Virus record (IMG/VR): IMGVR_UViG_3300043403_000102
Coordinates: 18,089-82,088 of that record
Reading direction: 5' to 3' (one strand)
DNA length: 64,000 bases
DNA from: a virus
The notes beneath the pieces are model-generated. The model did not search any database. It was not told the origin of the DNA and was given only the letters and a program-made list of their open reading frames with translations. The position numbers and the translations under genes are program-made. Numbering within the stretch: the stretch's first letter is position 1; each line of letters starts with the position of its first letter. Of the stretch, positions 28,524 through 51,138 are shown piece by piece.

Positions 28524-29735
28524 TCAGGGCGTGGTCTCGTCATCCTGCTCGGCGTAACGAGCCAGCCGGTAAGCCATGTCGGCGGCGACGTGCTCGACGT
28601 AGAACTGCGCAGCGAGGTCTTTGAGGTCTTGGATTACCTGGTCTTCGGGGGCTCTGTTTGTTATCCGGCGTCGAACGCGATGCGGGGGATCTGGGTAGTT
28701 GCGCAGCTCGACGGTGACGCGCCCTATGCGGCTGATGATACAAAAGGAGCCGCTCGTACCAATCCAATCAAGCCTGCCGTTGGAAGCGGGCTTGCCGCAT
28801 ATGGAGTTGCTGTAGAGCGAGCCATAGGGCTTCCACAGCAGGGTGGGGTGACTGCTCATAGATCCCATCTCGGCTTCACACCATGCTCCAGCAGCTTGGC
28901 GAAATGCTCGGCCACAAGTTCCTCCCAGCGGGCCTGCGCCATGGCCTTGGCCGTATCCATCGTGACGTCAAGGGCCTTCGTCAGAAGGAAGTTTTCGCAC
29001 ATGATGGGGCTCGGGATGCTGCGGACTTGAACGCGATACTGGTTGGGCTCAATCCAGACGGTGGCCACGTGCCTGTCATCTGCCGTGAACCCGTTACAAG
29101 CCAGGGCTTCGAAGCCGTTGTACGTCCAGCGAAGGCTCATGGCTTGCTAAGACGCTTGGCCATGCTTCCGGCCACCGCGCGCTCAAAGGCCCCTTGGGCG
29201 TTGCGTTTGGCGTCGTTCAAGGTGACCCCCTGGGTGGAGAACATGAACTGCTCGGTGGTGATCCATGAGGCGAAGATCTGAATTCGATACCGTTGCATCT
29301 GGGGCTCCAGCCATATGATGGACGCCAGGCAGTGAGTGTCAGGCGTGAACCCGTCGACGCGATTGTCAACGACGCCCCCCCATTGAATCAATCTGCCCTT
29401 GACGATGTCCATGTTGGTCCTTATGCTAAGTGTCCCCCGTGGGGGACACTTCAGGTAATGCCTACGCACGCAAGAAGCCCTGCCATGTACCGCGCGACGT
29501 GCCTCTCAGAGGACCAGATCTTTTCGGCGTGCGCCTTTGCTATCTCTACAGTGCGGGGCCTGTACGTTTTGGAAAGCCAGGGTTTGTTGTGCACCGTCAA
29601 AACAAGCGGCCCTCGCGTGTAAATCTTTGAGGAGTTGTACACGAACACGCGAGCACCGACGTCGGTGCTATCGCCTAGGTAACCTGTGTGATACGTCACG
29701 CTCTGGTTATTCCAGCAAACCCATCGCAGCTTCAC
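28524..29735 (-). repeat. Tandem array of 4 paralogous small CDSs (family C)
   Basis: 28524-28859, 28856-29140, 29137-29412, 29451-29735. N-terminal (L/I)xW; C-terminal (A/L)KxxA...E..VA..(M/F)A..L. Confidence 0.65.
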
Positions 29736-31728: not shown

Positions 31729-32873
31729 TGGTCTCTCCCAGCGCTGAGCGCGTTCCAAACCCCCAAGGCCTCGGCGTGGACGTCATCCCTCGATACCCCG
31801 GGCGGTAACGTCATCTGCTCGATGAACTCGGCAATGGCCGCCTTGGCATCGGACACCTGAGGCAGCGGCCCCAGGTCAATCGTGGCGTCGACGGGGGCCG
31901 CGTCTTCCACGACAATCGCACCGGTTGCCAGGACGGCACGCACCTTCTCGCCTGCCTTCGGTCCGAGGCGCGCATAGACGGGGTGGGACTTGGCGACCAG
32001 CATAGGCATCGCCATCGCGGCGTCGTTCGCCTCGTCCACGCGAAAGAACCGAGGCCCGGGGACTTCGACCCCTGTGATTGAATCAGGGACATACAGGGAC
32101 AGGCCGCCCACTGCTGGGTAGGTGCCGTCATCACCGAAGCCATGCGGAATTAGCGTGCCTACCTGAAGGATGCTCATCGCCCCGGTGACGCCCTCGCACT
32201 CCCAGAACTCACGGTGGTGGAAGTTCCCGACGAAGCAGTCGAGGACCCCGAGCCTCGTCATCACATCGAACAGGGCATCGTAATGGATGGCATCGTTGGC
32301 TCGGGCCTTCCATTCTCCCGCGCCCTTGTCGTCCCCGTAGACACCAACGTGTGTGATTAAGATCTTACGAGTATTGATCAACTCGCAAGGCGGGGGCTCG
32401 AAGGTCCGCAGGTACTCGGACATGGGCATCTGAGACTGGAACGGCACGCAGAGGGCCGTGATGCCCAACTCCTCCATGTCAATCCAAGTCGGCTCGGTGA
32501 CGATGGTGGCCTCGTTGAACAGCGGGGCCAGCGCCGTGTTGCCGTCCTTGGCGGTGGCGTCGGGCATGTCGTGGTTCCCCGGGATGAGCACGACCCCCAT
32601 GGTCTGGGCGTCCTCGCTGCTCAGCACGTGCTTCACGGCCGCGATGAGTGAGGGCTCGGGGCGGCACTTGTTAAAGAGGTCACCGGCCACGAACAGCACC
32701 TTCACCCCTGCGGCCTTGGCCTTGGAGATGGACGCGCTAAAGGCGTCGAGAGTTTCCTTTGCTCTACGGTTCAGGCCCGCGATGATGGGCCCTCCATACT
32801 TGGGGTGGTTGTCGATGTGAAGGTCGGCCACGATGCCGATGCAGTTGGATTCCTTTTTCTTGGCAGCCATCAC
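31725..32873 (-). CDS. SbcD/Mre11-like metallophosphoesterase nuclease
   Basis: ADLH, AGDLF, GNHD, GNFH motifs; adjacent to the SbcC-like gene. Confidence 0.9.
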   Translation of the reverse strand: MMAAKKKESNCIGIVADLHIDNHPKYGGPIIAGLNRRAKETLDAFSASISKAKAAGVKVLFVAGDLFNKCRPEPSLIAAVKHVLSSEDAQTMGVVLIPGNHDMPDATAKDGNTALAPLFNEATIVTEPTWIDMEELGITALCVPFQSQMPMSEYLRTFEPPPCELINTRKILITHVGVYGDDKGAGEWKARANDAIHYDALFDVMTRLGVLDCFVGNFHHREFWECEGVTGAMSILQVGTLIPHGFGDDGTYPAVGGLSLYVPDSITGVEVPGPRFFRVDEANDAAMAMPMLVAKSHPVYARLGPKAGEKVRAVLATGAIVVEDAAPVDATIDLGPLPQVSDAKAAIAEFIEQMTLPPGVSRDDVHAEALGVWNALSAGRDQ

Positions 32874-33865
32874 TTCTCCTCTTCGGGTATTGCGGCAAGG
32901 TCGGCCTCAAACTGCTCGATGCTGACAACGTCAGTCCAGCCCAAGTTGGCGAGCGCAGTCTTGATGGACTGGCACTTATCGGGCACGCAGCCGACATCCT
33001 TGGCGTGATGAAGGATGGCGTGCTTGTCGCTGAACCCCGTGGCGTAGTCGAGCTTGAGCTCGGCCTTGCGAAAGGGCGGGCACAGCTTGTTCTTCATGGC
33101 TTGGATCCCCATGTAGCGTGCGCCCGGGCCGTCGCCCTTGCCGTGCCTGACATTGAGGCGCACCGATGCGTAGAACTTGATGGCGTTGCCGCCGGGAGTG
33201 GTCTCGGGGTTCCCGTACAGGACCCCGATCTTCATGCGCACTTGGTTGATAAGCAGGAGCGTGGCCCCGTGGCGGTGCTTGCCCAGCAGCGCCGAGAGCT
33301 GCCTCAAGGAGCGCGACCAGATGCGCGCCTGCTCGCCTATGGCGGCGTCCCCGGTGAGGCCCTCGTCGAACTCCTTCTTGGTCTTGCAGGCGGCCACGCT
33401 ATCGACCGCAATCAACATCGGGCGCTTGGTCTTAGCGAGAAGCCGCTCAATCTGCGGGAACATCCCGGCCTCCCCGTCCATGTAGTCGGGCTGCAACAGC
33501 AGGAGCTCGTCGGTGTTCACACCCAGCATGCGGGCCCACTCGGGGTCGTAGGCGTGTTCGACTTCGACGAGGACGGCTTGACCGCCTATGCGCTGGCACC
33601 CGGCAAGCATCATGTTCATGACGCTGGACTTGCCCGCGCCTTCGCCCCCGTACATCTCAATCACGCGGCCCCAAGGAAGACCGCCTACTCCTAGGATGTA
33701 ACGATCGAGCGGTGTAATCCCGGTGGGGAACACGCCCCTCACGCCGACGTTGGCGCTGGCCAACGTCATGGCGATGTCGTCGCGCTTGAACACCGTACAA
33801 AGATCATCGGCCAATGCCTGGGCGGACTCGGTACCCGTCGGGGGTTTCTTCTTGATCGCGGCCAT
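32870..33865 (-). CDS. recA: RecA recombinase
   Basis: GGLPWGRVIEMYGGEGAGKS, VDSVAA, INQVRMKIGVLYGNPETTPGGNAIKFYASVRL. Confidence 0.95.
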   Translation of the reverse strand: MAAIKKKPPTGTESAQALADDLCTVFKRDDIAMTLASANVGVRGVFPTGITPLDRYILGVGGLPWGRVIEMYGGEGAGKSSVMNMMLAGCQRIGGQAVLVEVEHAYDPEWARMLGVNTDELLLLQPDYMDGEAGMFPQIERLLAKTKRPMLIAVDSVAACKTKKEFDEGLTGDAAIGEQARIWSRSLRQLSALLGKHRHGATLLLINQVRMKIGVLYGNPETTPGGNAIKFYASVRLNVRHGKGDGPGARYMGIQAMKNKLCPPFRKAELKLDYATGFSDKHAILHHAKDVGCVPDKCQSIKTALANLGWTDVVSIEQFEADLAAIPEEEK

Positions 33866-33884
33866 CGGTTCACCTCACACAAAT

Positions 33885-34009
33885 AAAAAAAGCGGCGGTG
33901 CTTTTTATCCGATAGTCAGCAGCAAAGAATCCATGACGGTGCTGCGCTCGAAAGGACCAACTCACGCACGCAGCACCCGGATCTCGCTGGTCGGAATTTG
34001 CACCGCCGC
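33885..34009 (-). ncRNA. Long intergenic hairpin RNA with an anti-RBS loop (candidate sRNA)
   Basis: Nested stems GCGGCGGTGC/GCACCGCCGC (33892-33901/34000-34009), TCCGA/TCGGA, CAGC/GCTG, ATCC/GGAT, GGTGCTGCG/CGCAGCACC. T7 run after the stem on the minus strand. Loop reads GUUGGUCCUUUCGA. Confidence 0.65.
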
Positions 34010-34034
34010 AAAAACAAGTCTACTTCACGACGGT

Positions 34035-34814
34035 CTAAAAGTCGTCGTCATCAATACCCCCGCCGCTCTTAACGGGCGTGGCATCGACGTCGATAACACC
34101 AGGCGGCGGGGCATCAGGATCTTCCCCCGCGAGGATGGCCGCGATCTCATCGGGCGTGCGGCGGGGGTAGACCGTGCTCAGGTCGTTCAAAGCGCCGAGC
34201 CAAGAACGATCGGCAATCGGGCTGGGTGCCTTAGAGAACCGCACCTTGTATCGGGTGTCCGTCTTGCCTGTGCCTTCGCGGTCGATGACCATGTTGTACC
34301 CGCGATCGGGATGACTGATGTCCCCCAGGGCCGTGTCATCGTCAGGGCCACTCCCGAGCATCAACGTGAGAATGTCCCCGTAAATGCCGGGGGCGTACTC
34401 CGCAACGAGCACCCCCAATGCGGGGTTCTGAAGGTCAATGACATTGGCCAAGATGCGGTGGCCTGCCGTGAAGTCGCCCGCCGTCTTGCTGGCCTGGCCC
34501 TGGCTGCGATAAAGCTCGGAGGCTTTGTCACAGGAGGCACACAGCTTCGACGCTCGTGTCTTGCGCGGGCACACGGTGGCCGTCTTCTTGGCGGGGTCAT
34601 TGGGGTTGGGAAGGTAGTGAACATATGTCTCGTAAAACGGGGACCTGATGTGGGGTCCCCACGGGGGCAGAATGCGCACGAGGTTGCGCCCCACGACCAG
34701 CTTCATCTTGGCCTTCTGACGGGCGGCCTTCTGGTCGAGGATGTTCTGGCGGGCTTCTTGAAGGAAGGAGAGGTCGGCTTTGCCGTGGACTGTCAGTGCT
34801 TTGTCGTCGCTCAT
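34035..34814 (-). CDS. Single-stranded DNA-binding protein (T4 gp32-like)
   Basis: VRILPP, H..C..CxxC zinc site, acidic DDDDF tail. Confidence 0.8.
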   Translation of the reverse strand: MSDDKALTVHGKADLSFLQEARQNILDQKAARQKAKMKLVVGRNLVRILPPWGPHIRSPFYETYVHYLPNPNDPAKKTATVCPRKTRASKLCASCDKASELYRSQGQASKTAGDFTAGHRILANVIDLQNPALGVLVAEYAPGIYGDILTLMLGSGPDDDTALGDISHPDRGYNMVIDREGTGKTDTRYKVRFSKAPSPIADRSWLGALNDLSTVYPRRTPDEIAAILAGEDPDAPPPGVIDVDATPVKSGGGIDDDDF

Positions 34815-34862
34815 GTGTGCTGGTTTCCTTTGGTTGCTGTTCTATGGGTTGCGTGTTGTGAT

Positions 34863-35354
34863 TTAGAGGTCGGAGTCGAGTAAGCGTTGGCGGGCCTTCG
34901 AGGTCGCAGTCTCGCCGTTGATGGAGGGGCTCGGCCTCATCTCGGCACGGTAGTTGGCCCCTAGGCTGATGAGCATCTCGCGCTTGGTCTGAAGGGCATC
35001 GCACACGTTGCCGACCTTCTCCACGTGCAGGGTTACGGAGTCCATCGCCTGTGCGGCACGCGTGAAACGCGGGTCGAGTATCGTGCTGGCCTTGACGAAC
35101 TCATCGGTGGCGGGCTTGCCGTTGGACATCGTGGCCCCCTTGTATTCGATGTAAAGCTGCGACTCGACCACCTCAAGCTCGCGCTTGACCTGGCGCTGAC
35201 GAGCCTTCGCTTCGGCGTAGCAGCCGCCGTAATACGCGACGTGACCGGGGATTGAGGTCATGTCGTTGTTGATCTCGGTCTCGTTCCCGATGCTCACGAC
35301 CTCGCGGACTTGGTCCGGGTCGAGCATCGACGTGTCTTGCTTGGGGTTTGTCAT
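34863..35354 (-). CDS. UvsY-like recombination mediator
   Basis: Helical protein with K-T-D..VKA and KREMLISLGANYRAE; next to ssb and recA. Confidence 0.65.
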   Translation of the reverse strand: MTNPKQDTSMLDPDQVREVVSIGNETEINNDMTSIPGHVAYYGGCYAEAKARQRQVKRELEVVESQLYIEYKGATMSNGKPATDEFVKASTILDPRFTRAAQAMDSVTLHVEKVGNVCDALQTKREMLISLGANYRAEMRPSPSINGETATSKARQRLLDSDL

Positions 35355-35360
35355 GTTAGA

Positions 35361-35386
35361 TATTTAGGGGCGCCAGTTTGGTTTAC
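35361..35386 (-). promoter_or_regulatory. Phage promoter GTAAAC-N14-TAAATA (copy 6)
   Basis: Exact motif; ATG 6 nt downstream; would drive uvsY-ssb-hairpin. Confidence 0.8.
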
Positions 35387-35391
35387 CCGAA

Positions 35392-37965
35392 TCAAACGGG
35401 CAGACTTTTTAGGTGACCCCAGTCATCCCCGACCTCCACGTCCACGGCCATCGGCACCCCGCCGCTAGGCCACCGCAGCATCAGGCGTTTGGCCTCGGCG
35501 GCCACCCGCAACACGTCGGCGTCGGGTACCTCCAGCACGATGGAGTCGTGCACCGTCATGACGACCTTGGTCTTGGGCTCCTCGTCCAGGGTCCATCGCA
35601 CGATCTCGACGAGGCTGGCCAGGCAGAAGCAATTCGCGATTCCTTGGATGGGGGTGTTCTGTGAGACGTTGACCCAGTGCCTTCGGATCTTCTCGTCCTC
35701 CTTGGTGCTGCCCTCTTGGCCCAGGCCATAGGCCGAACGACGGAACGTCCAATCAAGGCCGCTGCCCGGAGGGTTCCAAGACCACCGCAGCACGCCAGAT
35801 ACAGTGCCTTGAGCTTCTTGGTCGCGGCGCCACTTCGCCAGGCCCGCGTACTTGCCTAAGATCTTGTCGATGATGTTCTGCGCGGCATCGGTCGACATCC
35901 CCAAGGACTTACCCAGGGCATAGGAGCCCTGGCCAAAGATGAGGCCGAAGTTCACGGCCTTGGCGGCGGACCGCTGGGTCTTGGTAACCTGAGCAATCGG
36001 CGTGTTGAAAGCCAGAGCGGCCGTGGCCTTGTGGAAGTCCTCGCCGCTTTCAAAAGCCTTAGCCATCGCAACGTCCCCGCTCAGCATCGCGGCAACCCGC
36101 AACTCCTGCTGACTGTAGTCGAGCGAGACCAACTTCTTACCGTGAGGCGCGATGAAGCACCCACGCGCCCAAGACCCCTCGTCCCCCTCGACGTCGGGGC
36201 GGGTGATGTTCTGCATGTTGGGCCCCGACGAACTCAAGCGCCCCGTGCGCACGATCTTAAACGTCGTATGCACTCGCCCGTCGAGCACCGACATGTGCTT
36301 AAGCATCCCGAGCCCGTAGGTGCTGCGCTGCTTCTTGATGCCTGCGAAGTCCAGCAACAGGGCCACCGCGGGGTGTGAGGTCTTGAGCGCTTCAAGGGTG
36401 GCCGCGTCCGTGCTCGGCTTGCCCGTCGCGGTCTTGCTCATGACGGGCAGATTTAACTTTTCATACAGCAATTGAGCGATCTCATTGGGCGTGATCTTGA
36501 TCTCATGCGGGGCCTTCTTGGTCGAACCAGGCCGCGGAAGCAACCACTCACGGGGGACCTCGGGGATGGCCGCCAGGGATTGAATACACTGGTTGAGCTT
36601 GTTCTCTAAGAACATGTCATAGGCGCGCACGTTATCAGGGCTCAAGGCCATGCCGTTGCGCTCGACGTGGCCGAGCATCTCGAAGGCGGGGCCTATGAGC
36701 TTGGACCACGTAAGCTTCAACGCCTCAGGCATGGCCTTGGTCATCCAAGCATCAAGACGCGTAGTCGCGGCGATGTCGCGCCCGTTGTACGCGTGCAGCT
36801 TATCGACGGGCATCTTGGCGAACCGTGCGCCCCCCTTGGCGTCCTCGTCGTCCTCGCCGCTCTTAGCGGCTTCCTTGTACCCGCCGAACCCCACGAGCCA
36901 GGACAGCGGGCCTAGCCCCGATAGGGCCTCGGGTTCTCGCAGGCGCGCCCACAGCATCAGGTCACGTTCGACCCCCTTAATGTCCACGCCGAACTGCCGG
37001 TAGATGGCGTGGCGATCGTGCTTGACGTTGACGTTGACCTTAGGGACTCGGTGGTCTTCCATGAGCGCCTTGAAGGCACGCTGAACCACGGGGGTCCCCA
37101 GGGCCTCGCGGCTGAGCACCAGGGGGGCGCATCCACCATGGCCAATGCCTACGCATAGCAGCGCGAAGTCGCGCCCCCATAGGCTGCCTGCATGCTCAAC
37201 GTCAACCACCAGATTCCCGGGCGTCGTTGGCCCTTTGTATTTGTAGTCCCAGTGGATGTCGCACAACCTCTGGGCCGCCTCTATCGGGTCGGGTACCAAA
37301 GTCACCCCTGCGGGTTGCACGGGTAGCTCGGACGTCAGAGCCCAGGCCAGGTCTCTCTCGAACGTGATGCGTATAAAGCGATTGCGAATGCTGACGGTGT
37401 GGTCGCCCAAAATGAATGCGGGGATCCCCCGCACCATCCCCCAGGCGTGCCGCAGGTAGGTCGCATCTACATACCGCCCGAACGCGGACTGTATCGCGTG
37501 GTTACCGATGAGAATGATCCGGCTCGGCTTCGACTGCTCGATGTCGTTCAGCAAGTAGGGGCGGCACTTCTCGATCGTGTCGGTCTCGGGGGACTTCCCG
37601 ACGGAACACCCGATGGCATAGGTCAGGTTGACGCCGTCGGGGCATATGCGCTCAGCCAACCTGCGCACGTAAACGGACGAATGACTTGAGAAGGACCTGC
37701 CGCTGTGTGCCTCGTCGCGCGTGGGCGAGGGCAGCACGACGAGCGGCAAGCCAGGCGTAATAACAGGTGCCCCCATGCAGACGGTGGGGCTCTTGGTGTA
37801 AGCCTCGCAAGCCGTACATCCCGGAGTTCGCGCACGGGCTGCGTTCGCTCCCAACGTATCGAGCCCAGGGTTCCAAGGCTCCCACAGAGGCAGCGAGCGC
37901 GTGGGCTGCTCGGCCGTGGGTTCCAGAGGGTAAACCCGGTTATTCCAGTCGTCCCAGGGCTTCAC
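35392..37965 (-). CDS. polA: Family A DNA polymerase with N-terminal UDG-like domain and 3'-5' exonuclease
   Basis: UDG-like Cys cluster (CTAC..C..CRPYL); Exo I-III (DVE, NVKHD, YNGRD); TGRLSS, DYSQQELR, KAVNFG, NTPIQG, TVHDS. Confidence 0.93.
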   Translation of the reverse strand: MKPWDDWNNRVYPLEPTAEQPTRSLPLWEPWNPGLDTLGANAARARTPGCTACEAYTKSPTVCMGAPVITPGLPLVVLPSPTRDEAHSGRSFSSHSSVYVRRLAERICPDGVNLTYAIGCSVGKSPETDTIEKCRPYLLNDIEQSKPSRIILIGNHAIQSAFGRYVDATYLRHAWGMVRGIPAFILGDHTVSIRNRFIRITFERDLAWALTSELPVQPAGVTLVPDPIEAAQRLCDIHWDYKYKGPTTPGNLVVDVEHAGSLWGRDFALLCVGIGHGGCAPLVLSREALGTPVVQRAFKALMEDHRVPKVNVNVKHDRHAIYRQFGVDIKGVERDLMLWARLREPEALSGLGPLSWLVGFGGYKEAAKSGEDDEDAKGGARFAKMPVDKLHAYNGRDIAATTRLDAWMTKAMPEALKLTWSKLIGPAFEMLGHVERNGMALSPDNVRAYDMFLENKLNQCIQSLAAIPEVPREWLLPRPGSTKKAPHEIKITPNEIAQLLYEKLNLPVMSKTATGKPSTDAATLEALKTSHPAVALLLDFAGIKKQRSTYGLGMLKHMSVLDGRVHTTFKIVRTGRLSSSGPNMQNITRPDVEGDEGSWARGCFIAPHGKKLVSLDYSQQELRVAAMLSGDVAMAKAFESGEDFHKATAALAFNTPIAQVTKTQRSAAKAVNFGLIFGQGSYALGKSLGMSTDAAQNIIDKILGKYAGLAKWRRDQEAQGTVSGVLRWSWNPPGSGLDWTFRRSAYGLGQEGSTKEDEKIRRHWVNVSQNTPIQGIANCFCLASLVEIVRWTLDEEPKTKVVMTVHDSIVLEVPDADVLRVAAEAKRLMLRWPSGGVPMAVDVEVGDDWGHLKSLPV

Positions 37966-37967
37966 CG

Positions 37968-38588
37968 CTACAGCGCTCCTTCGATCCCCTTGTTGGTGCA
38001 CTGACGGCGAACGCGCTCTTCGAGCTTGCCGTCCTTGTGAATCTTGTCGATGGCGGGGCTGATGTTCGCATCACGCAGGTGCTCGACGAACTTCCACACG
38101 TCGGCGTAGGTCTTGGCGCCGCTGTCTCGGATGGCGTCGACGATCTCACCGAGCAGGGTCATGCGTGCGTAGGCAGACACGTCCGTCGAAATGACTGTGC
38201 CCTTGGCTTTAACGGGTGCCTGCGCCGCCGGTGGCTCCTCGTCCATCTCGCGCTTGATATCCGCCGAGGTCATGGTCGACAGCGTCGGCGGTACCACGGG
38301 GGCTGCGCCACCGAGCGTAAGCTTGGGCTTAATCCCAATTGTAAGCGGGGGCGCGGCGGCCGAGCCCGGACCCCCGCGAAGCAGTGCGGGAGCTTCGGTG
38401 AATATCTCCTTGAGCTGAACTGTCGCTTCGGCCGTCGAAGGCGGGGCCGCTTCGGGCGCAATCCCGAGAAGCTGCTGCACCTCCTTCCATGAAGTTACCC
38501 CCTCAATGGTCAAGGCGTGGCCAGTCCAGTTGATGCCGTACGCATTGCCGTTAATTTTTATCGCGGCCGAGATCGCTCTTATTTCCAT
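37968..38588 (-). CDS. Hypothetical protein
   Basis: Start MEIRAIS with AAAGGA RBS downstream of promoter copy 7. Confidence 0.6.
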   Translation of the reverse strand: MEIRAISAAIKINGNAYGINWTGHALTIEGVTSWKEVQQLLGIAPEAAPPSTAEATVQLKEIFTEAPALLRGGPGSAAAPPLTIGIKPKLTLGGAAPVVPPTLSTMTSADIKREMDEEPPAAQAPVKAKGTVISTDVSAYARMTLLGEIVDAIRDSGAKTYADVWKFVEHLRDANISPAIDKIHKDGKLEERVRRQCTNKGIEGAL

Positions 38589-38626
38589 GGTCGTTTGGTC
38601 CTTTTCTTCTTGCTTGTGCTGAATTG

Positions 38627-38653
38627 TATTTAGGGAAGGGGTCCGGGGTTTAC
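38627..38653 (-). promoter_or_regulatory. Phage promoter GTAAAC-N15-TAAATA (copy 7)
   Basis: Same boxes with a 15-nt spacer. Confidence 0.7.
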
Positions 38654-39501
38654 CCCACGATGTACCGATCGACCTCTCGCTTGAGCACGCCCGGGTCGGT
38701 GCCGGGGGGCAGGTGACACCAGCGCACGTCGTCGGCTCCTCGCAGGCGTAGACGCATCGCCAGGGCCGCGCACTCCTCCCAAGCGTCACCGTCGAGGCAA
38801 AAGATGATGCGTGATCCTGTTACCTCGACGGCTTCCAACCAGGCAAGCTGCTCCTCGGTGACGTTCTTGCCGAACGTGGCCACACCACACGGATACAGTG
38901 CAAGCGCATCGAGAACGCCCTCGACCACGTAGACGCTGGCCTTCCATCCGAGATCCTGCCCCCAAAGGGTCCCTCGACGGTTCATGCCTTTTGGGTATAG
39001 ATACTTAGGCTCGACCTTCGGGTGAATTGTGCGCGCGCTGAAGCCCGCATACTGCCCGGAGACAATGTGCGGAACGATGATGCGCCCGGCATAGTACCCC
39101 CGCGCAGCCACAAGCACCCCGGCTTGAAGTGCCTCCTCAAGCAGGTTGCGCTTGCGCAGGTAGGCGATGAATGCACGATGGTCAGAAGATCTTGGGTCAA
39201 GGGGATCGGCGTCCTCGGGCATCGGTTCGAGGGTGACCTCGACCTTGACCTTCTCGGCCAGCACCTCAACGTCTAAGATCTCAGAAACGTCGGCCTTGCC
39301 ACCCGAGCCGCAGCGATAGCAGTTGTACAGGCCGTTCTCGGCGTTGAGCTGCATCTTGTACTTGCGGTCGGCTTCGCCGGTCTTTAGCTCGCAGAACGGG
39401 CAGCACGTCGCATACTCCCCTCGGGCGTTGGGGCCCTTGGTGCCGTGCTCGGCCACCGCACGCGCGATGACCTTCGAGACCTTGGTGAGGGGCTTCTTCA
39501 T
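38650..39501 (-). CDS. DNA primase (zinc finger plus TOPRIM)
   Basis: CCPFC...YNCYRC, PKYL, VVEGVLDA, CLDGDA. Confidence 0.9.
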   Translation of the reverse strand: MKKPLTKVSKVIARAVAEHGTKGPNARGEYATCCPFCELKTGEADRKYKMQLNAENGLYNCYRCGSGGKADVSEILDVEVLAEKVKVEVTLEPMPEDADPLDPRSSDHRAFIAYLRKRNLLEEALQAGVLVAARGYYAGRIIVPHIVSGQYAGFSARTIHPKVEPKYLYPKGMNRRGTLWGQDLGWKASVYVVEGVLDALALYPCGVATFGKNVTEEQLAWLEAVEVTGSRIIFCLDGDAWEECAALAMRLRLRGADDVRWCHLPPGTDPGVLKREVDRYIVG

Positions 39502-40835
39502 AGGGCACCTTCCTCGTCAGCCGTGAGCGCCTGACCCCCGCGAATGAACTGCCCATAGGCGAAGCCATTGTGGTACGGGCCGACGACCGCCCCGCTTTGA
39601 GCATACCGGCACCACCCGACGTTCAACCTTACGAGGCCGTTCTGTCGCTCCTCCTCGGTGCCGCAGATGGCGATACCAACGTCCGAGATCGCAGCCTTCA
39701 TGAAGCTGTCCGCGATGTCCGCCATCGACACGACCTCCTTCGATAAGCTGTCTCGCTTAGCCCACGACGCCGTCCAAAAGCGCGTGCGGTACTTCACGGC
39801 AAGGCCTCGAAGCTCGGAGTACACCCCGCCGAGCGCCCCGTACTTGTTGTCAAAGGACCCTAGGCTTTGCATAAGGTCGCCCGAGTCCACGATGACCACG
39901 GTGGGTTCAAGCCCACGTTCGGCACGCAACATCTGGAGATGCTCGTCGATGTCCTTGGCCGTGGTGCTGTAGCTAGGGAACTGCTTGATGACGAGACAGC
40001 CCCCCATCGTGTTGACGAAGTCCATGACCTTCGAGTTAACGAAGTCGGCGCGCTTGTTCAGCTCGTCGATGAGCACGTCGGCGATGGACGCGTCGATGCG
40101 ATCGATAAGGTCCGACTCGCTCATCTCAAGGCTGTAGTACACGACGGTGCCCCCGCACTCCATCGTGTACTTTGCGATATGTCCCAGCAGTTGGCTCTTG
40201 CCGAACTTGGGGGCCCCGAGGATGGTGCCGAGTTCACCGGCAGCCAGGCCCCCACGGATCATGTCGTCAAGGTCCGAAATACCGGTACCCAGACGAGGGG
40301 GGCGCTTGTTGAGGCGCCGTGCCTCGGTACGGGTTTCGAGGTCGCCTAGGTAGTCCGCGCCCATGCTGATGTCGACGAGACCGATGCTGGCGGCCTTGTC
40401 GATCTTGGCGCGGATGGCCTCGTAATCCCCGCGCGGAAGGATGGCGAGGGATTCGTTCATGGCGTTCCACATCGCCACCTTGCGGGCCTCGCCTAGGAAG
40501 GCCTCTTGGACAAATAGGCCGTCCGCTCGTGGGATCTCCTCGGCGTACTCGAAAGCCTGGGACGCGCCGATGAGTTGGTCGTTGGTGACCTTGCCCGAGT
40601 TTACCCGTGCGCGGATGTCCTGAAGGACGACGATGCTAGTCGGGGGTTTGTTGTGGCGCTTGTACAGGGCAACGGCGGACTCGACGATGAGTTGAAGCTC
40701 AGGCTTCCCCATACGAGCTGGTGCCAAGAACGGAGCCACACGCTGGAACAAGAGGGGGTCTGCGAAGAACTGATAGATGGACGCATACTGGAAGTCGACT
40801 TCAAAGGGATAGGGCTCGGTTGAGGGTGCGGGCAC
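39498..40835 (-). CDS. Replicative DNA helicase (DnaB-like)
   Basis: TGISDLD, GAPKFGKS, YSLEMS, VIVDSGD, LRGLA, IADS. Confidence 0.88.
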   Translation of the reverse strand: MPAPSTEPYPFEVDFQYASIYQFFADPLLFQRVAPFLAPARMGKPELQLIVESAVALYKRHNKPPTSIVVLQDIRARVNSGKVTNDQLIGASQAFEYAEEIPRADGLFVQEAFLGEARKVAMWNAMNESLAILPRGDYEAIRAKIDKAASIGLVDISMGADYLGDLETRTEARRLNKRPPRLGTGISDLDDMIRGGLAAGELGTILGAPKFGKSQLLGHIAKYTMECGGTVVYYSLEMSESDLIDRIDASIADVLIDELNKRADFVNSKVMDFVNTMGGCLVIKQFPSYSTTAKDIDEHLQMLRAERGLEPTVVIVDSGDLMQSLGSFDNKYGALGGVYSELRGLAVKYRTRFWTASWAKRDSLSKEVVSMADIADSFMKAAISDVGIAICGTEEERQNGLVRLNVGWCRYAQSGAVVGPYHNGFAYGQFIRGGQALTADEEGAL

Positions 40836-41331
40836 TTTCGATCCATTCTCGCCACTGGCGGCGTCGGTCGGCCTTAGACTGGTACGTTAACGGAGCAAGC
40901 ACTTCACCGGAACGTTGCCGATAATAAGGCAACCAACAAATCACCGCCTTCAAACTGATAACCTCGCTGCGATAAGGGGTGCGCCCCTTCAACTGACGCA
41001 TGCGGCGCATGACAAAGGTGACGTAAGCGTCGAAGCTGACACGAGCCCGTATAATGAGCACCGCTGCCGTCGAATAGGCAGCGCGTTGGTTTTCCGTGAT
41101 GATCGAACGGGTGTTAGGCTTGGTAAGCAGGTTGCGCTCGTAGGCGACGAGCAACCTATCGACGGCCGAGTCAAGGTTGATGAACCCGTTCGGTAGGTTG
41201 TCAGGCCGCTTGATCTCATCACGAGACACGGCATCCATGGGGGGTGGTGCAACCCATTCACCGGGGCACAGAGCACCCAGCGATCTACCTATGCGCTTGT
41301 CGTTCGTCCATATGGGGGGTCGTCGCTGCAT
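40801..41331 (-). CDS. Hypothetical protein (possible replication accessory)
   Basis: 176 aa, directly upstream of the helicase, GAGGA RBS. Confidence 0.55.
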   Translation of the reverse strand: MQRRPPIWTNDKRIGRSLGALCPGEWVAPPPMDAVSRDEIKRPDNLPNGFINLDSAVDRLLVAYERNLLTKPNTRSIITENQRAAYSTAAVLIIRARVSFDAYVTFVMRRMRQLKGRTPYRSEVISLKAVICWLPYYRQRSGEVLAPLTYQSKADRRRQWREWIESARTLNRALSL

Positions 41332-41347
41332 TGGTCCTCTCGATGTC

Positions 41348-41373
41348 TATTTAGATTGAGGTGGTTGGTTTAC
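41348..41373 (-). promoter_or_regulatory. Phage promoter GTAAAC-N14-TAAATA (copy 8)
   Basis: Exact motif upstream of the helicase-primase operon. Confidence 0.75.
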
Positions 41374-41716
41374 CTGTAAGAACCTCACGCACCGCAAGTG
41401 CTGCGGTTTGCCAAGCACCTACCTGCTGCGCAGCCGGAAGCCTGTCAAGGCTCAAGGCCAAACGGGCTGCCAGCGTACACAACAAACCAACCCCTGGGGC
41501 TAGAAGATGATCGGCGGTTAGACGATCGCGGAGGTGTGCAAGAACGCACACCTCTAAACTCGTTGGGGTATCAGCACGCCACACACCACGCTGCTTAAGT
41601 AGGTTGACGACTTCGATCACACCATCAACGGCATCATTCGATGTCGCAAGGTGCCTATGCATGTGTCGTTGCGCCTTCGTAGGCAGGCCTGTATTTACCC
41701 ATCTCTTCTTCATCAA
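41351..41716 (-). CDS. Hypothetical protein
   Basis: 121 aa ORF with GAGG RBS. Confidence 0.5.
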   Translation of the reverse strand: MMKKRWVNTGLPTKAQRHMHRHLATSNDAVDGVIEVVNLLKQRGVWRADTPTSLEVCVLAHLRDRLTADHLLAPGVGLLCTLAARLALSLDRLPAAQQVGAWQTAALAVREVLTGKPTTSI

Positions 41717-41788
41717 TTACCCCTCTCTTTCCTGCTTTGAATACACCCCGGCCTTTCCACCCCTTTGACATTCCCTTGTGCTGTAACC

Positions 41789-42552
41789 CAGCAGGGGAGA
41801 CGTCACGTCTGGTGTAGATGCCTTGCGTCTGAAAGAGTGAATGATCTACTGCTGCTAACTCAGGTCGTACTAGCTGCGAGGCTTAGCAAGGAGATCTCCT
41901 ATATCGACCCTGATGGTTGAACACGTCGGGGGCACTTCCGTTCCCCGTGCTTGCCATATCTTCAATCCATCGAAGGTCTTCGATGAGGGTCCCCCCTCAT
42001 CAGGCGATCTCAACGCGGCCGACGCTATGCTGTACAGCGTGGGTGGTTGAGGCAATTTTTGTCAATTGGACGCTTAAGTCTCTGACAGTAGATCAAAGCG
42101 ACTCGCTTTGTGCTGTTCGATCTCGCTATATGGCCAAGGACCGCGAGCTTGAGGTCGTGTCCCTCTGGAAGCCGCTTGCCCATCTACATCCTCCCGTCGC
42201 CCGGACTGCTCCGCCGTAACATCATTCTCTGTCGATCTTGAATCCGTACCTAGGTCGCAGTCGGTTGACGCTGCGACAAACTGCTTACGGTGATGCACTC
42301 GACATGAAGTTTGATGCCACCTCGTGGCGGTAGAAACGGTGCCCCTTTGAAAGCCAAGGCATGTAGTTGCACTTCACTAGCGTTGAGATCGGTTTTGTTT
42401 GTCAACCAGCATCAGTTGTCGTATTCTGCGAAAGCTCGGTTAACAACCGAGGGCAGCATCTGAGATTGGTTTCTTTGTGGTGATTGTTTCCCTCTCTTGG
42501 CTGCTGTTGAGCCCCCACCGAGTTCGAGCTCGGCTGGGGGCTTTTCCTTTTT
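41789..42552 (+). ncRNA. Candidate large structured ncRNA
   Basis: No convincing ORF; many local hairpins and 10-12 bp long-range complements; ends in a plus-strand terminator. Confidence 0.55.
42509..42552 (+). terminator. Rho-independent terminator
   Basis: GAGCCCCCA-CCGAG...CTCGG-TGGGGGCTT followed by a T-rich tail on the plus strand. Confidence 0.7.
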
Positions 42553-42635
42553 CAAGGAAGCTCCGGGGTTAATGATGCGCGGCAATTATTACCTCTGGTC
42601 CAGGCCCGAGGGGTAGGAAATTTTTCAGCCTGTTT

Positions 42636-42959
42636 CTAATTGCCTGAATCCTTTGGGGTTTTTTCTTCCGACCGGACCACGTGCTTGGCGATGAACTCGT
42701 CGTACTTCAGGCCCGTGAGGCCCTTGCACATGGCGTCCATCAGGGTCCGTTGCCGGTCAAGGGCCCCGCTGAGAAGGCCGATCATCCGGTCGGCCCTTCG
42801 GTTGACCTCGCGCAGCCTGACGTGGTGGGCGGCCAATGAGATTGCCAAGATCCCCAGAATCGGCCCCGTGAACCACGTTGGGGAGTGACGCACCAGCAGG
42901 TACCCCAACCCCGCCGAGAACCCCACCACGAGGGCTGCCTGCACCTTGTTGGAGGTCAT
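42636..42959 (-). CDS. Membrane protein (2 predicted TM helices)
   Basis: Two hydrophobic N-terminal segments. Confidence 0.55.
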   Translation of the reverse strand: MTSNKVQAALVVGFSAGLGYLLVRHSPTWFTGPILGILAISLAAHHVRLREVNRRADRMIGLLSGALDRQRTLMDAMCKGLTGLKYDEFIAKHVVRSEEKTPKDSGN

Positions 42960-43168
42960 GATGTGATGTCACCTACGTCGTCGTCTTCGTACTCCCCGTC
43001 GAACCCGCACCGGCAGCAGGGCTTCTCATCCCACCAGCAAGCGCAGTGCTTCTTGTCTTCGCTGTCCTTGCAGTACCCGTGCTCGGGCCTATTGGTTCTC
43101 TCCATCTCGGCGATGGCCGCGTTTACGTAGGCGATGGCGGCATCGAGTGCTTTGGTGTTGTTGCTCAT
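42956..43168 (-). CDS. Small Cys-rich protein
   Basis: C...HCACWW...CCRC. Confidence 0.55.
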   Translation of the reverse strand: MSNNTKALDAAIAYVNAAIAEMERTNRPEHGYCKDSEDKKHCACWWDEKPCCRCGFDGEYEDDDVGDITS

Positions 43169-44562
43169 AGGCGCCCCCTCATCAACTGGGTCTCTTCGTT
43201 CGATACCAGGCGCACGTCATGTCCCGTCTGAGCGTACAGGGTCCTGCGGGTGCGCGCGTGGTCCTCAAGCCAGGGGTTGCCTATGTCGGCGAGATCCCAC
43301 ACCTCGCACGTCGTCTTCCCCTCGGCGATGCGCTTCACACGCCCTATGCGCTGGATGATCTTGATGGTGGACTTGCCAGCCCCCGCCACAACCACAGAGG
43401 CCAGCTCAGGGATGTCCACCCCCTCGTCGAATACAGGGGTAGCAATCGCAACGTCGAGTTCGCCCCTGCGCATGCGATTGATGGTGTCGAGTCGGCTCAA
43501 GGCCCCATCAGCCCCGTGCACGAGTCGAACAGTGACCCCTAGGCGCTTCTCAAGCAACGGCTTTAGGGCCTTGCCATGTTCAAGGTGACTGACGAACACC
43601 AAGCACGGCTTCGCCGCGCCCTTGACGATCGCTGCGATGGTCAGGTTGCGGGTCTCGCTCGTCGCGACCAGCGCATGGTACGCGTCCTGCCACGTCTCCG
43701 CGGTCAGCCTTTGAATGCACGGCACGAGTCGCACGACGGGGGCCGACAGCTTCCCCAGGTCCACCAGGCCCTGCTCCCTGGCCGAATAGATCGGCTCCCC
43801 CAACGCCCCCACCACCAGAACGTTCCGGCTGTCCCCGCGCTCAAGCGGCGTGGCCGAGAACCCGAACCGCCAATAGGCGTTGTGTGTCGCGTTAAGAACG
43901 GGCAGGAAACCCGTGGCTGAAGCGGTGTGGCATTCGTCTACGATAAGGCCCCTGGCTTCGCCCAGGAGGCGCTGGACGTGGGCCGTGCCCAAACCCCTAG
44001 CCAGGGTCTGGAACGTCGCCACGGTCGCGCGCTGGGGGTCCCAGGTACCGTCCCCGACGGTGCCGCAGGTCTCCCCGGTCCTGGAGGTAATCCGGGCGGC
44101 CAACTGGCCCAGGAGGGACGTCGTATGGACCAGGACGACCCAGGGCCCCGGGATGGCTGCAACCAGGGCGGCTATGACCTCGCCCTTGCCTGCCCCGGTG
44201 GGGGCCTTGACCAGCCCTCGACCGGCCTTCAGGCAGGCCGCCAGCATCTGGGGCTGCTCTCGTTCGGTGTCGAGCCAGGACGTGTCGGCCTTCGAATCGG
44301 GTTCGATGCGGGTCCGCCGGTCCAAGATATCAACCCGGTGCCCTGCTCGCTCGGCCCCTCGGCGCACGGGCCCCAGGAACCCCGTGGGGAATGTATTCGC
44401 CACCGCGTTGAACATCCGCTGACGTGTGTCCCCTCGGGGCACCCTTGCTCCTGGGATGCGGGCCTGTGGGGGTTGGAAGCTCAGGTACCCGTCGAGCCAG
44501 GCGTGCTCGGCAGCCGTGCCGTTGACGACGCGGGTGTCTACGTTCCCGATGTGTAGGTGCAT
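43165..44562 (-). CDS. Superfamily 2 DNA helicase (UvsW/DEAH-like)
   Basis: APTGAGKG, VDECH, SATP, DEGVDIP, IQRIGR. Confidence 0.92.
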   Translation of the reverse strand: MHLHIGNVDTRVVNGTAAEHAWLDGYLSFQPPQARIPGARVPRGDTRQRMFNAVANTFPTGFLGPVRRGAERAGHRVDILDRRTRIEPDSKADTSWLDTEREQPQMLAACLKAGRGLVKAPTGAGKGEVIAALVAAIPGPWVVLVHTTSLLGQLAARITSRTGETCGTVGDGTWDPQRATVATFQTLARGLGTAHVQRLLGEARGLIVDECHTASATGFLPVLNATHNAYWRFGFSATPLERGDSRNVLVVGALGEPIYSAREQGLVDLGKLSAPVVRLVPCIQRLTAETWQDAYHALVATSETRNLTIAAIVKGAAKPCLVFVSHLEHGKALKPLLEKRLGVTVRLVHGADGALSRLDTINRMRRGELDVAIATPVFDEGVDIPELASVVVAGAGKSTIKIIQRIGRVKRIAEGKTTCEVWDLADIGNPWLEDHARTRRTLYAQTGHDVRLVSNEETQLMRGRL

Positions 44563-44566
44563 CGGG

Positions 44567-44821
44567 TCACGCGCGCTTGCCGTAGGCGGGTCCGCACAAG
44601 GTCTTGAGGTCGCCCGCGTGGACGAACACCCGCTTCAAGCCCGCGCGCTGCGTGCGCAGAACCTGCTTGGCGATCCATCCGTACACCGTTGATAGGGGCG
44701 TTCCACTCACGCGTGCGGCCTCCGATGGAGTGATCCAGCCATCTTTAGCGAGCGCGGCCGCAAGTCGCGGTTGCTTAGGTCCTGGAGGACAGCCGCGCGG
44801 TTTCATTGGTGTTGGGGCCAT
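44567..44821 (-). CDS. Helix-turn-helix DNA-binding protein (excisionase/MerR-like)
   Basis: ITPSEAARVSGTPLSTVYGWI. Confidence 0.7.
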   Translation of the reverse strand: MAPTPMKPRGCPPGPKQPRLAAALAKDGWITPSEAARVSGTPLSTVYGWIAKQVLRTQRAGLKRVFVHAGDLKTLCGPAYGKRA

Positions 44822-44831
44822 GAGGGTTTGC

Positions 44832-45488
44832 TCAACTTTCTTGTGGTTGGGGGAAACGACGGCACAACTCAAGCAGCCCGCTTTCGAGGGTGGTACCATA
44901 CCGCAGGGCGGTGGCTTTGATCTCGTCGCGGTCTTCGGCCGCGTCCAGCACGAGCCGCAGGGCGTATCGTTTCTGGTTGGTCATCGAGGCCTCCTCGGTT
45001 TGGAGGCCCCCGCCCTCGCCGTAGGCCCCGGGCCCCAGGTCGTCGAAGGTGTTGGTCTGGGCCAGGTCCTTGAGCATCAGCTCGATGTCCCCGCCCGAGA
45101 ACCCCGTCAGCGTGAGGTCGGGGAACTTGAGGTCGCTCAGATCTTTGAGCACCAGCGCGGCCTTGGCTAGGTCGGTGGTCCCACGCAGACGATTCAGCGA
45201 CAGCATCGCCGCCGCGGCCTGGGGGTCTTCGAGGTGGTCCGCAATCAACACGGGGATCTCTTTGAGCCCTGCGGCCTGGGCAGCACGGAATCGATGGTGC
45301 CCGTCGACCAGCACGAACCCATCATTGCCCGTGCGCACGGTCACCGGTTGGATAAATCCGAGCTTGGCGATGGCGTTCGTCAACATCTCGAACTCCGACG
45401 GGTCCATCGCGTTGGGGTTGATGCCTGGGTTCTCCTGTATCGCGGTGACCTTGAGATACTTCAGTTGGGGCTTCGGGGCTGCGGTCAT
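44832..45488 (-). CDS. ParB/Srx-like protein
   Basis: NPNAM, GFIQPV, LVDGHHRFRAA, NRLRG. Confidence 0.85.
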   Translation of the reverse strand: MTAAPKPQLKYLKVTAIQENPGINPNAMDPSEFEMLTNAIAKLGFIQPVTVRTGNDGFVLVDGHHRFRAAQAAGLKEIPVLIADHLEDPQAAAAMLSLNRLRGTTDLAKAALVLKDLSDLKFPDLTLTGFSGGDIELMLKDLAQTNTFDDLGPGAYGEGGGLQTEEASMTNQKRYALRLVLDAAEDRDEIKATALRYGTTLESGLLELCRRFPQPQES

Positions 45489-46099
45489 GGTCTCAGATCC
45501 TCCAGGGTGCCTAGTTCGTTCAGTTCTTCGTACAGATTCCAAAGCTCCACGTCCGAGCGCAAGGCCTCCTTCACTTGGCTGCACATCCGGTAGAACTGCC
45601 TCGTGGTGACACCGAGTTGCTCGGCCCGCTCTTGAGACGCCCCGTTGTAGACGTCGGCGAGCGTGTGCTCTCGAACGACCGCACGCGCCTGCTCGGGTAC
45701 CTGCTCTAGGGCATTGTCGAGTAGGCGGTGGAACTTGCGACGCGCGTCCCTAAGGGCCTGCGTGCGTTCGACGTTCAACGCGGCGACCTCGGGCGTGGAC
45801 CCCTCGTCATCGAGCCAGCCCTCGGCCGCGTCTAGGTCGACCGCGTGCTTGATGCCCCTCGCGGCTTCCCAGTTGTCATGTATCGAATACGGACAGATCG
45901 TCCGCGCGACAAAGTTCCCCAGCTCCCTGCTCACGGCCACGTACGTGTATCCGGGGGCCTTGATGCCCTTGTCCCAAGTCGACAGAGCAATCCGCCATGC
46001 CTCCTGCTGCAGGTCCTCGGCATCGACGTTGTAGTATTTACGCTGAGCGTTCTTGATGACGTCGCGCATGACTTTGGCCTGCTCGCTTGTAATTTCCAT
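45485..46099 (-). CDS. Phage RNA polymerase sigma factor (sigma70/ECF-like)
   Basis: Region 2-like DAEDLQQEAW; region 4-like ALEQVPEQARAVV...ERAEQLGVT. Confidence 0.7.
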   Translation of the reverse strand: MEITSEQAKVMRDVIKNAQRKYYNVDAEDLQQEAWRIALSTWDKGIKAPGYTYVAVSRELGNFVARTICPYSIHDNWEAARGIKHAVDLDAAEGWLDDEGSTPEVAALNVERTQALRDARRKFHRLLDNALEQVPEQARAVVREHTLADVYNGASQERAEQLGVTTRQFYRMCSQVKEALRSDVELWNLYEELNELGTLEDLRP

Positions 46100-46135
46100 C
46101 GCCGTTGGTCCCTTCGAAAGTGAGAGTGAGAAACT

Positions 46136-46177
46136 ATATAGAGCCGGGGGAGAAAGTAAATACCCCCGGCTCTATAT
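46136..46177. terminator. Perfect 15-bp stem-loop (terminator or processing site)
   Basis: ATATAGAGCCGGGGG-N12-CCCCCGGCTCTATAT between the AAA ATPase and sigma genes. Confidence 0.6.
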
Positions 46178-46188
46178 TCGACTGATGC

Positions 46189-47334: not shown

Positions 47335-47368
47335 GGTGTGATGGTCCTTTCGATTCAGGTCTGTGACG

Positions 47369-48631: not shown

Positions 48632-48861
48632 AGCACCTCAAGCCCGGCGTTCCGAACCCACTCGATGTAGCTCGCCAGGTTGATGAGGGTGGTGTTGACG
48701 TCGGTGCCGATCGTCTTGTACGCGATGACTTCACTACCTCCCTCGGCCATCAGCTCACCCACGCACGGGGTTCCCGGGTAGACGACGAACTTACGTTCGC
48801 TCTCTAACAAGATCGCCTGCGCCTCTTCCAACTTCATGTGCCGTCGTGTTGCCATGTTCAC
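48628..48861 (-). CDS. Hypothetical protein
   Basis: 77 aa coupled ORF. Confidence 0.5.
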   Translation of the reverse strand: MNMATRRHMKLEEAQAILLESERKFVVYPGTPCVGELMAEGGSEVIAYKTIGTDVNTTLINLASYIEWVRNAGLEVL

Positions 48862-49721: not shown

Positions 49722-49852
49722 GTTGGTCCTTTCGATTTACGGGGCGACAGTTACCGAGGCGAACACCCAGACCACCCCCACCAGGAGCGCGAGAAAGATC
49801 ACGCAATCAAGGATCGCGGCGGCGGGGCTTTGTTTGCATTCGTTTTCGTCAA

Positions 49853-50179
49853 TCATCCGAGTGCCTCTTGCATCGTGGTGTCCGAGCCCGACAACATCTC
49901 GTTGACCATCGCGGGCACCCGCCCGAAATACAGGATGCGTTTGTTGTGGTCCTCGCGACGTTCGATGACGGGGATCCCCGCCATACGCAGGCGACTGATG
50001 AGGGCCGCTGACGAGGCCCTATATTTCCCCGAATAGGTCGCGGCCGACCCCTTCAGGGTCGAGCCGCTGATGGACTCGTTCCCGAGAACGATACCGCGCT
50101 GATAGCTTCCCTTGCAAAGCGCCAGCGCCCGGTCTTGTTCCTCTTGTGTACCGTGGTCCCAGTTTGCCCACTTGCCCAT
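49853..50179 (-). CDS. Early hypothetical protein
   Basis: Start MGKWANW after the TCGAAAGGACC motif. Confidence 0.6.
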   Translation of the reverse strand: MGKWANWDHGTQEEQDRALALCKGSYQRGIVLGNESISGSTLKGSAATYSGKYRASSAALISRLRMAGIPVIERREDHNKRILYFGRVPAMVNEMLSGSDTTMQEALG

Positions 50180-50277
50180 GATGGTCCTTTCGATGATGCG
50201 GGTACTCCGCTCAGGACTCCGCATGCGTGATGCGAGGCCCTGAGCGAAGGGGCAGTCGCCTGCCCCTCAACACCTCC

Positions 50278-51136: not shown

Positions 51137-51138
51137 GT

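Follow-up and report, generated by a model that had tools for sequence, protein, structure and literature searches.

The phage considered here is uncultured; it is represented by an IMG/VR virus record of 82,088 bp that is rated 96% complete, has a G+C content of 62%, and is found in sequencing runs of freshwater and sediment metagenomes, among which no RNA run was listed. The stretch of DNA that was analysed, referred to below as the window, is 64,000 nucleotides long and corresponds to bases 18089-82088 of the record. In a rough gene call the minus strand carries nearly all of the genes, and it is treated here as the coding strand. Two of these genes, encoding an SSB-like protein and a UvsX/RecA-like recombinase, are separated by a gap of 169 nt (window positions 33866-34034). 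A family A DNA polymerase and a helicase are encoded upstream of the pair, and SbcD-like and SbcC-like proteins downstream. The gap contains a large hairpin followed by a tract of seven U residues, and the apex of the hairpin carries a 14-nt sequence that is complementary to a motif found at the ribosome sites of seven other genes of the phage. The features concerned are collected in Table 1.

Table 1. Features of the ssb-uvsX gap and of the tagged genes, in window coordinates
Feature	Position	Strand	Remarks
SSB-like gene	34035-34814	minus	phrog_1192, E 3e-21; stop codon 25 nt ahead of hairpin
RNA hairpin, 118 nt	33892-34009	minus	10-bp GC-rich basal stem and internally structured upper part
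Apical anti-tag GUUGGUCCUUUCGA	33948-33961	minus	hexaloop UUGGUC and weakly paired flanks; exact reverse complement of TCGAAAGGACCAAC
U7 tract, intrinsic-terminator-type tail	33885-33891	minus	directly behind basal stem; putative RNA 3' end
UvsX/RecA-like recombinase gene	32870-33865	minus	phrog_97, E 1.5e-53; ATG 19 nt past U7 tract
Repeated phage promoter copy	35358-35390	minus	family D1; nearest promoter-like element upstream of hairpin
RBS tag, two G-U compatible changes	41330-41343	minus	overlaps ATG 41331; directly behind repeated-promoter copy
RBS tag, one G-U compatible change	46104-46117	minus	4 nt ahead of ATG, 204-aa sigma-like gene (45485-46099)
RBS tag, 12 contiguous nt	47340-47353	minus	5 nt ahead of ATG, AAA/MoxR-like ATPase gene (46189-47334)
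RBS tag, 14/14	49722-49735	minus	ends at ATG of 287-aa gene (48858-49721)
RBS tag, 12 contiguous nt	50180-50193	minus	ends at ATG 50179
RBS tag, 13 contiguous nt	50789-50802	minus	4 nt ahead of ATG 50784; small hairpin precedes
RBS tag, one G-U compatible change and one end mismatch	51679-51692	minus	4 nt ahead of ATG 51674
Partial tag AAGGACCAAC, 10 nt	29413-29422	minus	at ATG 29412
Partial tag AAAGGACCAA, 10 nt	38595-38604	minus	6 nt ahead of ATG 38588

An earlier reading of this DNA, made from the sequence only, had described the gap as a hairpin of about 120 nt followed by U7, and folding bears this out, with 118 nt of structure and then U7 on the coding strand. The MFE of the minus-strand RNA (33866-34034) is -67.4 kcal/mol (z -4.09), and none of 200 shuffled sequences was as stable. 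The basal stem is formed by GCGGCGGUGC (34009-34000) paired with GCACCGCCGC (33901-33892); nine of its ten base pairs are G-C, and the U7 tract (33891-33885) follows. A GC-rich stem with a U-tract on the transcribed strand is the mark of an intrinsic terminator. The hairpin departs from the short form with a small loop, as its stem encloses 98 nt of further structure. The plus-strand fold of the gap is similarly stable (z -4.95), yet has no U-run behind it.

In a survey of the whole genome, in which the 140 nt ahead of each coding-strand run of at least five T residues were folded, a helix ended at the T-run in seven cases. The hairpin between ssb and uvsX reached -61.7 kcal/mol and the runner-up -36.8 kcal/mol, and no other terminator-like element stands out along the coding strand of the 82-kb genome. 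A simple terminator scan missed it because that scan was limited to loops of 3-8 nt. Assignment to a known RNA family was rejected: a search of 33700-34200 against Rfam, at E-values up to 10, returned three chance-level matches (E 0.49-1.6), all to eukaryotic miRNA or snoRNA models and far under the gathering scores, and none of them credible. The 3' half of the hairpin also holds a 9-codon ORF (ATG...TAA; 33903-33932, minus strand), which has no Shine-Dalgarno sequence and is probably meaningless.

The 14 nt at the top of this structure had been described as its apical loop. Their position is right, but they are not fully single-stranded: the predicted apex consists of the hexaloop UUGGUC on top of three weak pairs and two bulges, and the remainder of the 14 nt is weakly paired. 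Freeing the whole anti-tag costs 6.1 kcal/mol in the fold, which counts against an antisense role; that it covers the apical hexaloop of the single outstanding hairpin-plus-U7 counts in favour of one. Read on the plus strand, the same 14 nt are a copy of the motif itself. This copy was considered as a ribosome site and rejected, as no start codon follows downstream.

The motif complementary to the apex, TCGAAAGGACCAAC, is referred to here as the tag. Allowing up to two mismatches, it has eight matches in the window where 0.54 are expected, and none of 100 shuffles reached eight. One match lies on the plus strand and is the hairpin apex (33948-33961); the other seven lie on the minus strand, at 41330, 46104, 47340, 49722, 50180, 50789 and 51679, all between 41.3 and 51.7 kb. 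The claim that the loop is the reverse complement of a motif at start codons is thereby confirmed, with seven copies at start codons and one inverse copy. When the whole 82,088-bp record is searched with up to one mismatch, there are one forward and five reverse matches, against one and none for a control motif read backwards; no second inverse copy was found in the 82-kb genome at this threshold. From base composition (62% GC), an exact inverse 14-mer would be expected about 2e-4 times per genome. The recurrence of the motif is real and far beyond chance.

The placement of the tag is strict. The last nucleotide of each of the seven minus-strand copies falls somewhere from 2 nt inside the ATG to 5 nt ahead of it, and in each the GGA occupies the Shine-Dalgarno position. 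The six imperfect copies contain eight differences in total, of which four, at positions 5, 6 and 11 and, in the 41330 copy, a U at position 14, are compatible with G-U pairing; the other four are mismatches proper and are confined to the outer positions 13-14. In what is a small sample, this pattern would fit a pairing that needs the inner 12 nt. No similarity was seen beyond the 14 nt, into the flanks, so a recent duplication of the 14-mer is unlikely. Pairing with the 3' end of 16S rRNA would also be served by the purine changes and by the GAAAGGA core, and part of the conservation of the tag therefore needs no sRNA; what remains private to it is UC on one flank and CCAAC on the other. Contigs from four DNA runs covering 33000-52000 are fragmentary, with a depth of 0.13-2.4 in the bin that contains the hairpin. 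In fragmentary contigs of two diverged strains, the differences listed include the loss of 1 nt at 49736 and others at 49746-55, and none inside the tag at 49722-35. In run X10, strains of about 92% identity were seen.

The sequence-only reading had regarded the targets as early genes. Most of them do lie in the early block, but the gene starting at 41331 stands behind a copy of the repeated promoter and outside that block, and the set is therefore described here as tagged genes rather than strictly as early genes. The two partial 10-nt sites listed in Table 1 are also real, and both precede ATGs. At the upstream end of the set, ATG 51674 belongs to the first ORF after a long leader. The two most upstream tags lie within a common 38-nt block (50780-50817 and 51670-51707; 84% identity; repeat family D17), which includes a small hairpin immediately 5' of the tag. 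Further upstream, a perfect 14-bp hairpin (GGGAACTGCGGCCC ... GGGCCGCAGTTCCC) is followed by an AT-rich stretch in 52080-52260, and heads some 400-500 nt that contain no called minus-strand ORF and precede the first tagged gene. The region 52080-52260 is likely to be an early promoter and leader region.

One of the tagged genes had been named as a sigma factor. Its 204-aa product (45485-46099) has no Pfam or PHROG match, to a sigma factor or otherwise, but its neighbours in a protein atlas are viral clusters with Sigma70_r4 in 10-80% of their members, and a stored structural model of it aligns best with sigma-70-family clusters (TM 0.54). Its identity as a sigma factor is best treated as a lead provided by the model and the atlas, and the product is called sigma-like here.

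The repeated promoter of the phage has the form GGTAAACC-N10/11-CCCTAAATA, with seven copies in family D1 and another at 41348. Copies of this promoter-like element lie on the minus strand at gene boundaries, at 17056, 20207, 22480, 24094, 27004, 35358, 38624 and 41348. An ATG is often found a few nt after the TAAATA of the element, which suggests leaderless messages. The hairpin had been placed downstream of one such copy. The copy exists, at 35358-35390, but it is 1.35 kb away and two genes intervene: it stands just ahead of the gene at 34863-35354, which is followed by ssb and then by the hairpin. No promoter-like (sigma-70-like) site was flagged adjoining the hairpin. A D1-type promoter directly ahead of it was sought by eye and rejected, as no GTAAAC box stands at a suitable distance; the sole promoter-like trace there, again by eye, is a weak TAGACT that precedes the stem by 7 nt.

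Because no promoter-like site was flagged beside the hairpin, the RNA is more likely to be the 3' end of the ssb transcript than the product of a separate sRNA gene, and processing may release this 3' end as an RNA of its own. No other convincing hairpin-plus-T-run was found on the coding strand from the early leader (near 52 kb) down to position 33891, so early transcripts may also end at the hairpin. The next copy of the repeated promoter downstream of the hairpin is the one at 27004, and with the uvsX start codon so close behind the U7 tract, uvsX, sbcD and sbcC probably rely on read-through.

Complementarity between the apex and the tags is reflected in predicted pairing energies. When the loop 14-mer was paired with each of 104 translation-start regions, the seven tagged genes were the best seven of the 104, with duplex energies of -19.0 to -24.9 kcal/mol; the next start region reached -17.1 kcal/mol. 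With 200 shuffled loops, a mean of 0.2 start regions reached -18 kcal/mol or lower, with a maximum of three. Accessibility was then taken into account in a scan in which any 16-nt window of the 125-nt RNA was free to pair and the opening energies of both partners were added. An alternative that used suboptimal duplexes of the whole RNA gave just long, bulged duplexes with huge opening costs, and was replaced by these 16-nt windows. In the accessibility-corrected scan, tagged genes were the best six of the 104 start regions, at -10.1 to -14.6 kcal/mol, where the median of all regions was +0.3 kcal/mol. The partial site at 29412 ranked 7th, the tag of 51674 9th, the ssb start region 10th and the partial site at 38588 11th of the 104.

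In all of the best 16 of these 104 rows, the window used on the RNA side fell within positions 43-63, which form the apex; in silico, no other part of the RNA is as prone to interact. The tag sites are moderately accessible, with opening costs of 2.5-7.2 kcal/mol (median 4.8 kcal/mol), compared with a median of 6.9 kcal/mol for other start regions. The expectation that the tagged ribosome sites would rank at the top thus holds among the 104 start regions. It is borne out only in part when about 16,400 windows of the coding-strand transcript are ranked by raw 20-nt duplex energy: the tags hold five of the ten best places and seven of the best 23, GC-rich coding sites that are not ribosome sites score like the tags, and the single best place is not a ribosome site, which counts against an antisense role.

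Searches of INPHARED, IMG/VR, JGI metagenomes and GTDB gave no relative above 47-48% UvsX identity among the matches listed. In INPHARED, a DNA search returned a single 95-nt match and a protein search with the polymerase returned identities of at most 29%. IMG/VR offered UvsX proteins of at most 44% and a polymerase of 34% identity, and no relative of the SSB. For IMG/VR, too, identities in a 12-protein UvsX alignment were at most 47%; a scan of JGI metagenomes with UvsX returned cellular-type RecA proteins at 41-48% among the matches listed, and scans of GTDB with the SSB and the polymerase found nothing related. The exact 14-mer tag had just single, chance-like matches among the matches listed for IMG/VR, and the promoter pattern had nine single matches there, none of them a relative by tblastn. 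Closer UvsX proteins are present in a large protein collection; P0003 is 77% identical but is a fragment whose gene lacks the 5' end, and several others, P0002 and P0004-P0007, are 51-57% identical (BLASTP).

Distant loci provide a partial view of what is conserved. In four of ten distant UvsX loci (L008, L010, L011 and L012) a simple terminator-like hairpin lies just ahead of uvsX, so a terminator at this place recurs. Three high-GC loci (L215, L254 and L258) have in common the order polymerase, small gene and/or ssb, uvsX, sbcD and sbcC. The ssb-uvsX hairpin is kept in none of these three syntenic relatives, which counts against an antisense role. In L258 and L254 the gene upstream of uvsX overlaps or abuts it, with no gap between them; this gene is SSB-like by match in L258 only. 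In L215 (GC 67%) the ssb-uvsX gap contains two strong hairpins, at 5121-5260, which are different from the hairpin of the phage. Both sense and antisense copies of AGAAATAAGGGCGC make them up, and this 14-mer, which has five matches there against 0.58 expected, doubles as the uvsX ribosome site of L215; the fold has a z of -6.45. The hairpins of L215 apparently serve local translational control of uvsX. Sequences complementary to a ribosome site do, then, occur in the ssb-uvsX gap of another lineage, an observation that is neutral with regard to action in trans. A search for repeated k-mers with inverse copies in L215, L254, L258 and L272 revealed no tag system, just codon-like repeats and, in L272, a 12-nt tandem repeat.

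On the most likely reading, the arrangement would be that of an antisense RNA of the 3'UTR type, embedded in a terminator and masking the tagged ribosome sites, and the chances that this is correct are judged to be about even. The hairpin would then be both an intrinsic terminator and the stable 3' end of the transcript that carries 34863-35354 and ssb, and may also end longer early transcripts. The 14 nt of its apex would base-pair with the private tag, UCGAAAGGACCAAC, which in seven phage genes overlaps the Shine-Dalgarno sequence and the spacer. From the hexaloop UUGGUC, where contact would begin, the duplex would extend to 12-14 bp, covering the ribosome-binding site so that 30S binding is blocked; decay of the mRNA might follow. 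As the RNA accumulated, translation of the tagged set would fall. What the sequence shows is the structure, the U-tract, the exact complementarity with its statistics, and the target ranking; the existence and stability of the RNA, its pairing in the cell and its repressive effect are what we infer here.

The sequence-only reading had proposed a shut-off of early genes by this RNA, driven by the phage sigma factor. The in-silico complementarity, the ranking of the targets and the terminator-like end on the coding strand speak for that proposal, but no promoter of its own was found for the RNA. The proposed negative-feedback timer, with feedback through the sigma factor, is coherent, and each of its steps beyond the complementarity would have to be granted. 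In its fullest form, a single terminator-embedded RNA would act as a master post-transcriptional switch, made once the phage promoters fire, directed by a 14-nt address at the early ribosome sites and closing the timer by including among its targets the sigma-like factor that would act at those promoters. This form is put forward tentatively, the balance being somewhat against it.

The 3'UTR-derived sRNAs of bacteria carry a single-stranded seed upstream of a small terminator; unlike these, the proposed seed here would lie at the apex of the terminator hairpin itself. The proposed regulator would be like them in being a terminator-proximal 3' end of an mRNA that finishes in a U-tract; CisR, described as derived from the prtV 3'UTR, is an example (PMC13250501). 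The nearest known mechanism is found in phages P1 and P7, where immunity is controlled through the ant operon by the c4 antisense RNA (Citron and Schuster 1990); according to a review, it base-pairs in trans around the ribosome site of the ant message, probably by way of loops, and translation is blocked (PMC12197685). The likeness is that a structured phage RNA carries sequences complementary to a ribosome-binding region encoded elsewhere; the complementarity here extends, in silico, over 12-14 nt and seven start regions. As the review presents it, c4 has one target, the ant operon, and belongs to temperate phages (PMC12197685), whereas here one loop faces seven tagged genes; no sign of lysogeny genes was seen in the parts of the phage that were examined. 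The hairpin is not a member of the c4 family, whose Rfam model has no match in 33700-34200 at E-values up to 10.

The closest parallel to the tag itself is provided by the start-associated sequences (SAS) that Pope et al. (2011, PMC3203893) describe in cluster K mycobacteriophages, a private 13-bp motif, GGGATAGGAGCCC, which contains a Shine-Dalgarno core. It lies 3-7 bp ahead of the start codons of non-structural genes, nearly always in one orientation, with a single opposite-orientation copy in four phages; its function has been open since 2011, and its authors name a host or phage RNA or protein as a possible partner (PMC3203893). The tag shares with the SAS its position within a few nt of start codons, its single orientation (seven of seven sense copies) and its association with non-structural genes (PMC3203893). 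It differs in sequence (TCGAAAGGACCAAC compared with GGGATAGGAGCCC), and is the same kind of feature from a different family; those phages have actinobacterial hosts, and the account given of the inverse SAS copy reports no hairpin around it (PMC3203893). In its logic, a post-transcriptional shut-off by one phage factor, the closest system is T4 RegA, according to a review a protein repressor in competition with the ribosome for the start regions of about 30 mRNAs of the early and middle classes (PMC3014915). RegA is described there as a protein with loose, A+U-rich sites (PMC3014915), whereas the factor here would be an RNA and its site an exact tag. In open-access papers and bioRxiv, no phage RNA was found that acts against multiple ribosome sites through a shared motif.

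The features of the hairpin might also be explained in other ways. As a plain intrinsic terminator and mRNA stabiliser of the ssb transcript, and an attenuator for uvsX-sbcD-sbcC, with no function in trans for the match between loop and tag, it would need the basal GC stem and the U7 that are found; the uvsX ATG 19 nt behind it, the absence of a promoter copy belonging to uvsX-sbcD-sbcC (the next downstream being that at 27004) and the terminator-like hairpins at the same place in four of ten distant UvsX loci all agree with such a role. This explanation must, however, leave to chance the exact 14-nt inverse copy at the apex, for which about 2e-4 are expected per genome, and the 98-nt insert is not needed by a terminator; it is considered unlikely, though it deserves to be kept in mind. 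If the pairing is real, it might instead operate in cis or in the reverse direction, with tagged leaders, on the same long early transcript or acting in trans, altering the folding of the terminator, read-through into uvsX or the stability of the ssb message instead of early genes being repressed. Early transcripts may run into the hairpin, there being no other convincing coding-strand hairpin-plus-T-run upstream, and the gap hairpins of L215, which carry the 14-mer of the uvsX ribosome site, point to local control of uvsX in that lineage. The uvsX ribosome site of the phage is GAGGUGA, however, and lacks the tag; moreover, termination should not change, because the 10-bp basal stem and U7 would survive opening of the apex. 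Action of this kind appears improbable.

The 14-mer might otherwise be the site of a protein, on DNA (in either orientation) or on RNA, in which case the copy in the hairpin would count as an eighth site or, given transcription of the plus strand, as a decoy. Precedent is available in part, as the authors of the cluster K study allow for a host or phage protein, as well as an RNA, as partner of the SAS (PMC3203893), and in T4, as reviewed, a protein, RegA, is able to repress about 30 early mRNAs by acting on their start regions (PMC3014915). A protein that binds RNA would not be expected to recognise the motif in its complementary form, however, and the called genes are on the minus strand; no promoter-like site was flagged on the plus strand near the hairpin, and a U-run is lacking behind the fold of that strand. 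Nor would a DNA site be expected seven times at start codons and once exactly on the apex of a hairpin. A protein site is accordingly thought very improbable.

Should the antisense pairing work, one short RNA would address a whole set of genes through a private tag in their ribosome sites, providing a simple form of temporal control, and for the start-associated motifs described in cluster K (PMC3203893) a testable function would be on offer. If it also acts as a master switch, it would be an RNA counterpart of T4 RegA, and would explain the purpose of private start-associated motifs and of lone inverse copies in phages. The tag and the loop would, in addition, form a compact, orthogonal pair for translational control, which can be tested with reporters without knowledge of the host.

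Two further observations concern the distant loci and proteins. At 336-385 of L272, four tandem copies of the 12-nt unit CACCTGTCCTTT lie in non-coding DNA beside a strong terminator-like hairpin; no GAAAGGA ribosome sites matching this unit were found on the same strand, and the repeats look like iterons. P0002, a UvsX relative of 486 aa (51% identity by BLASTP, 62% over aligned columns), carries an insert of some 155 aa that directly follows the conserved motif YGNPE (columns 246-400 of alignment A1). In its position, and in ending in HN, the insert resembles a putative intein.
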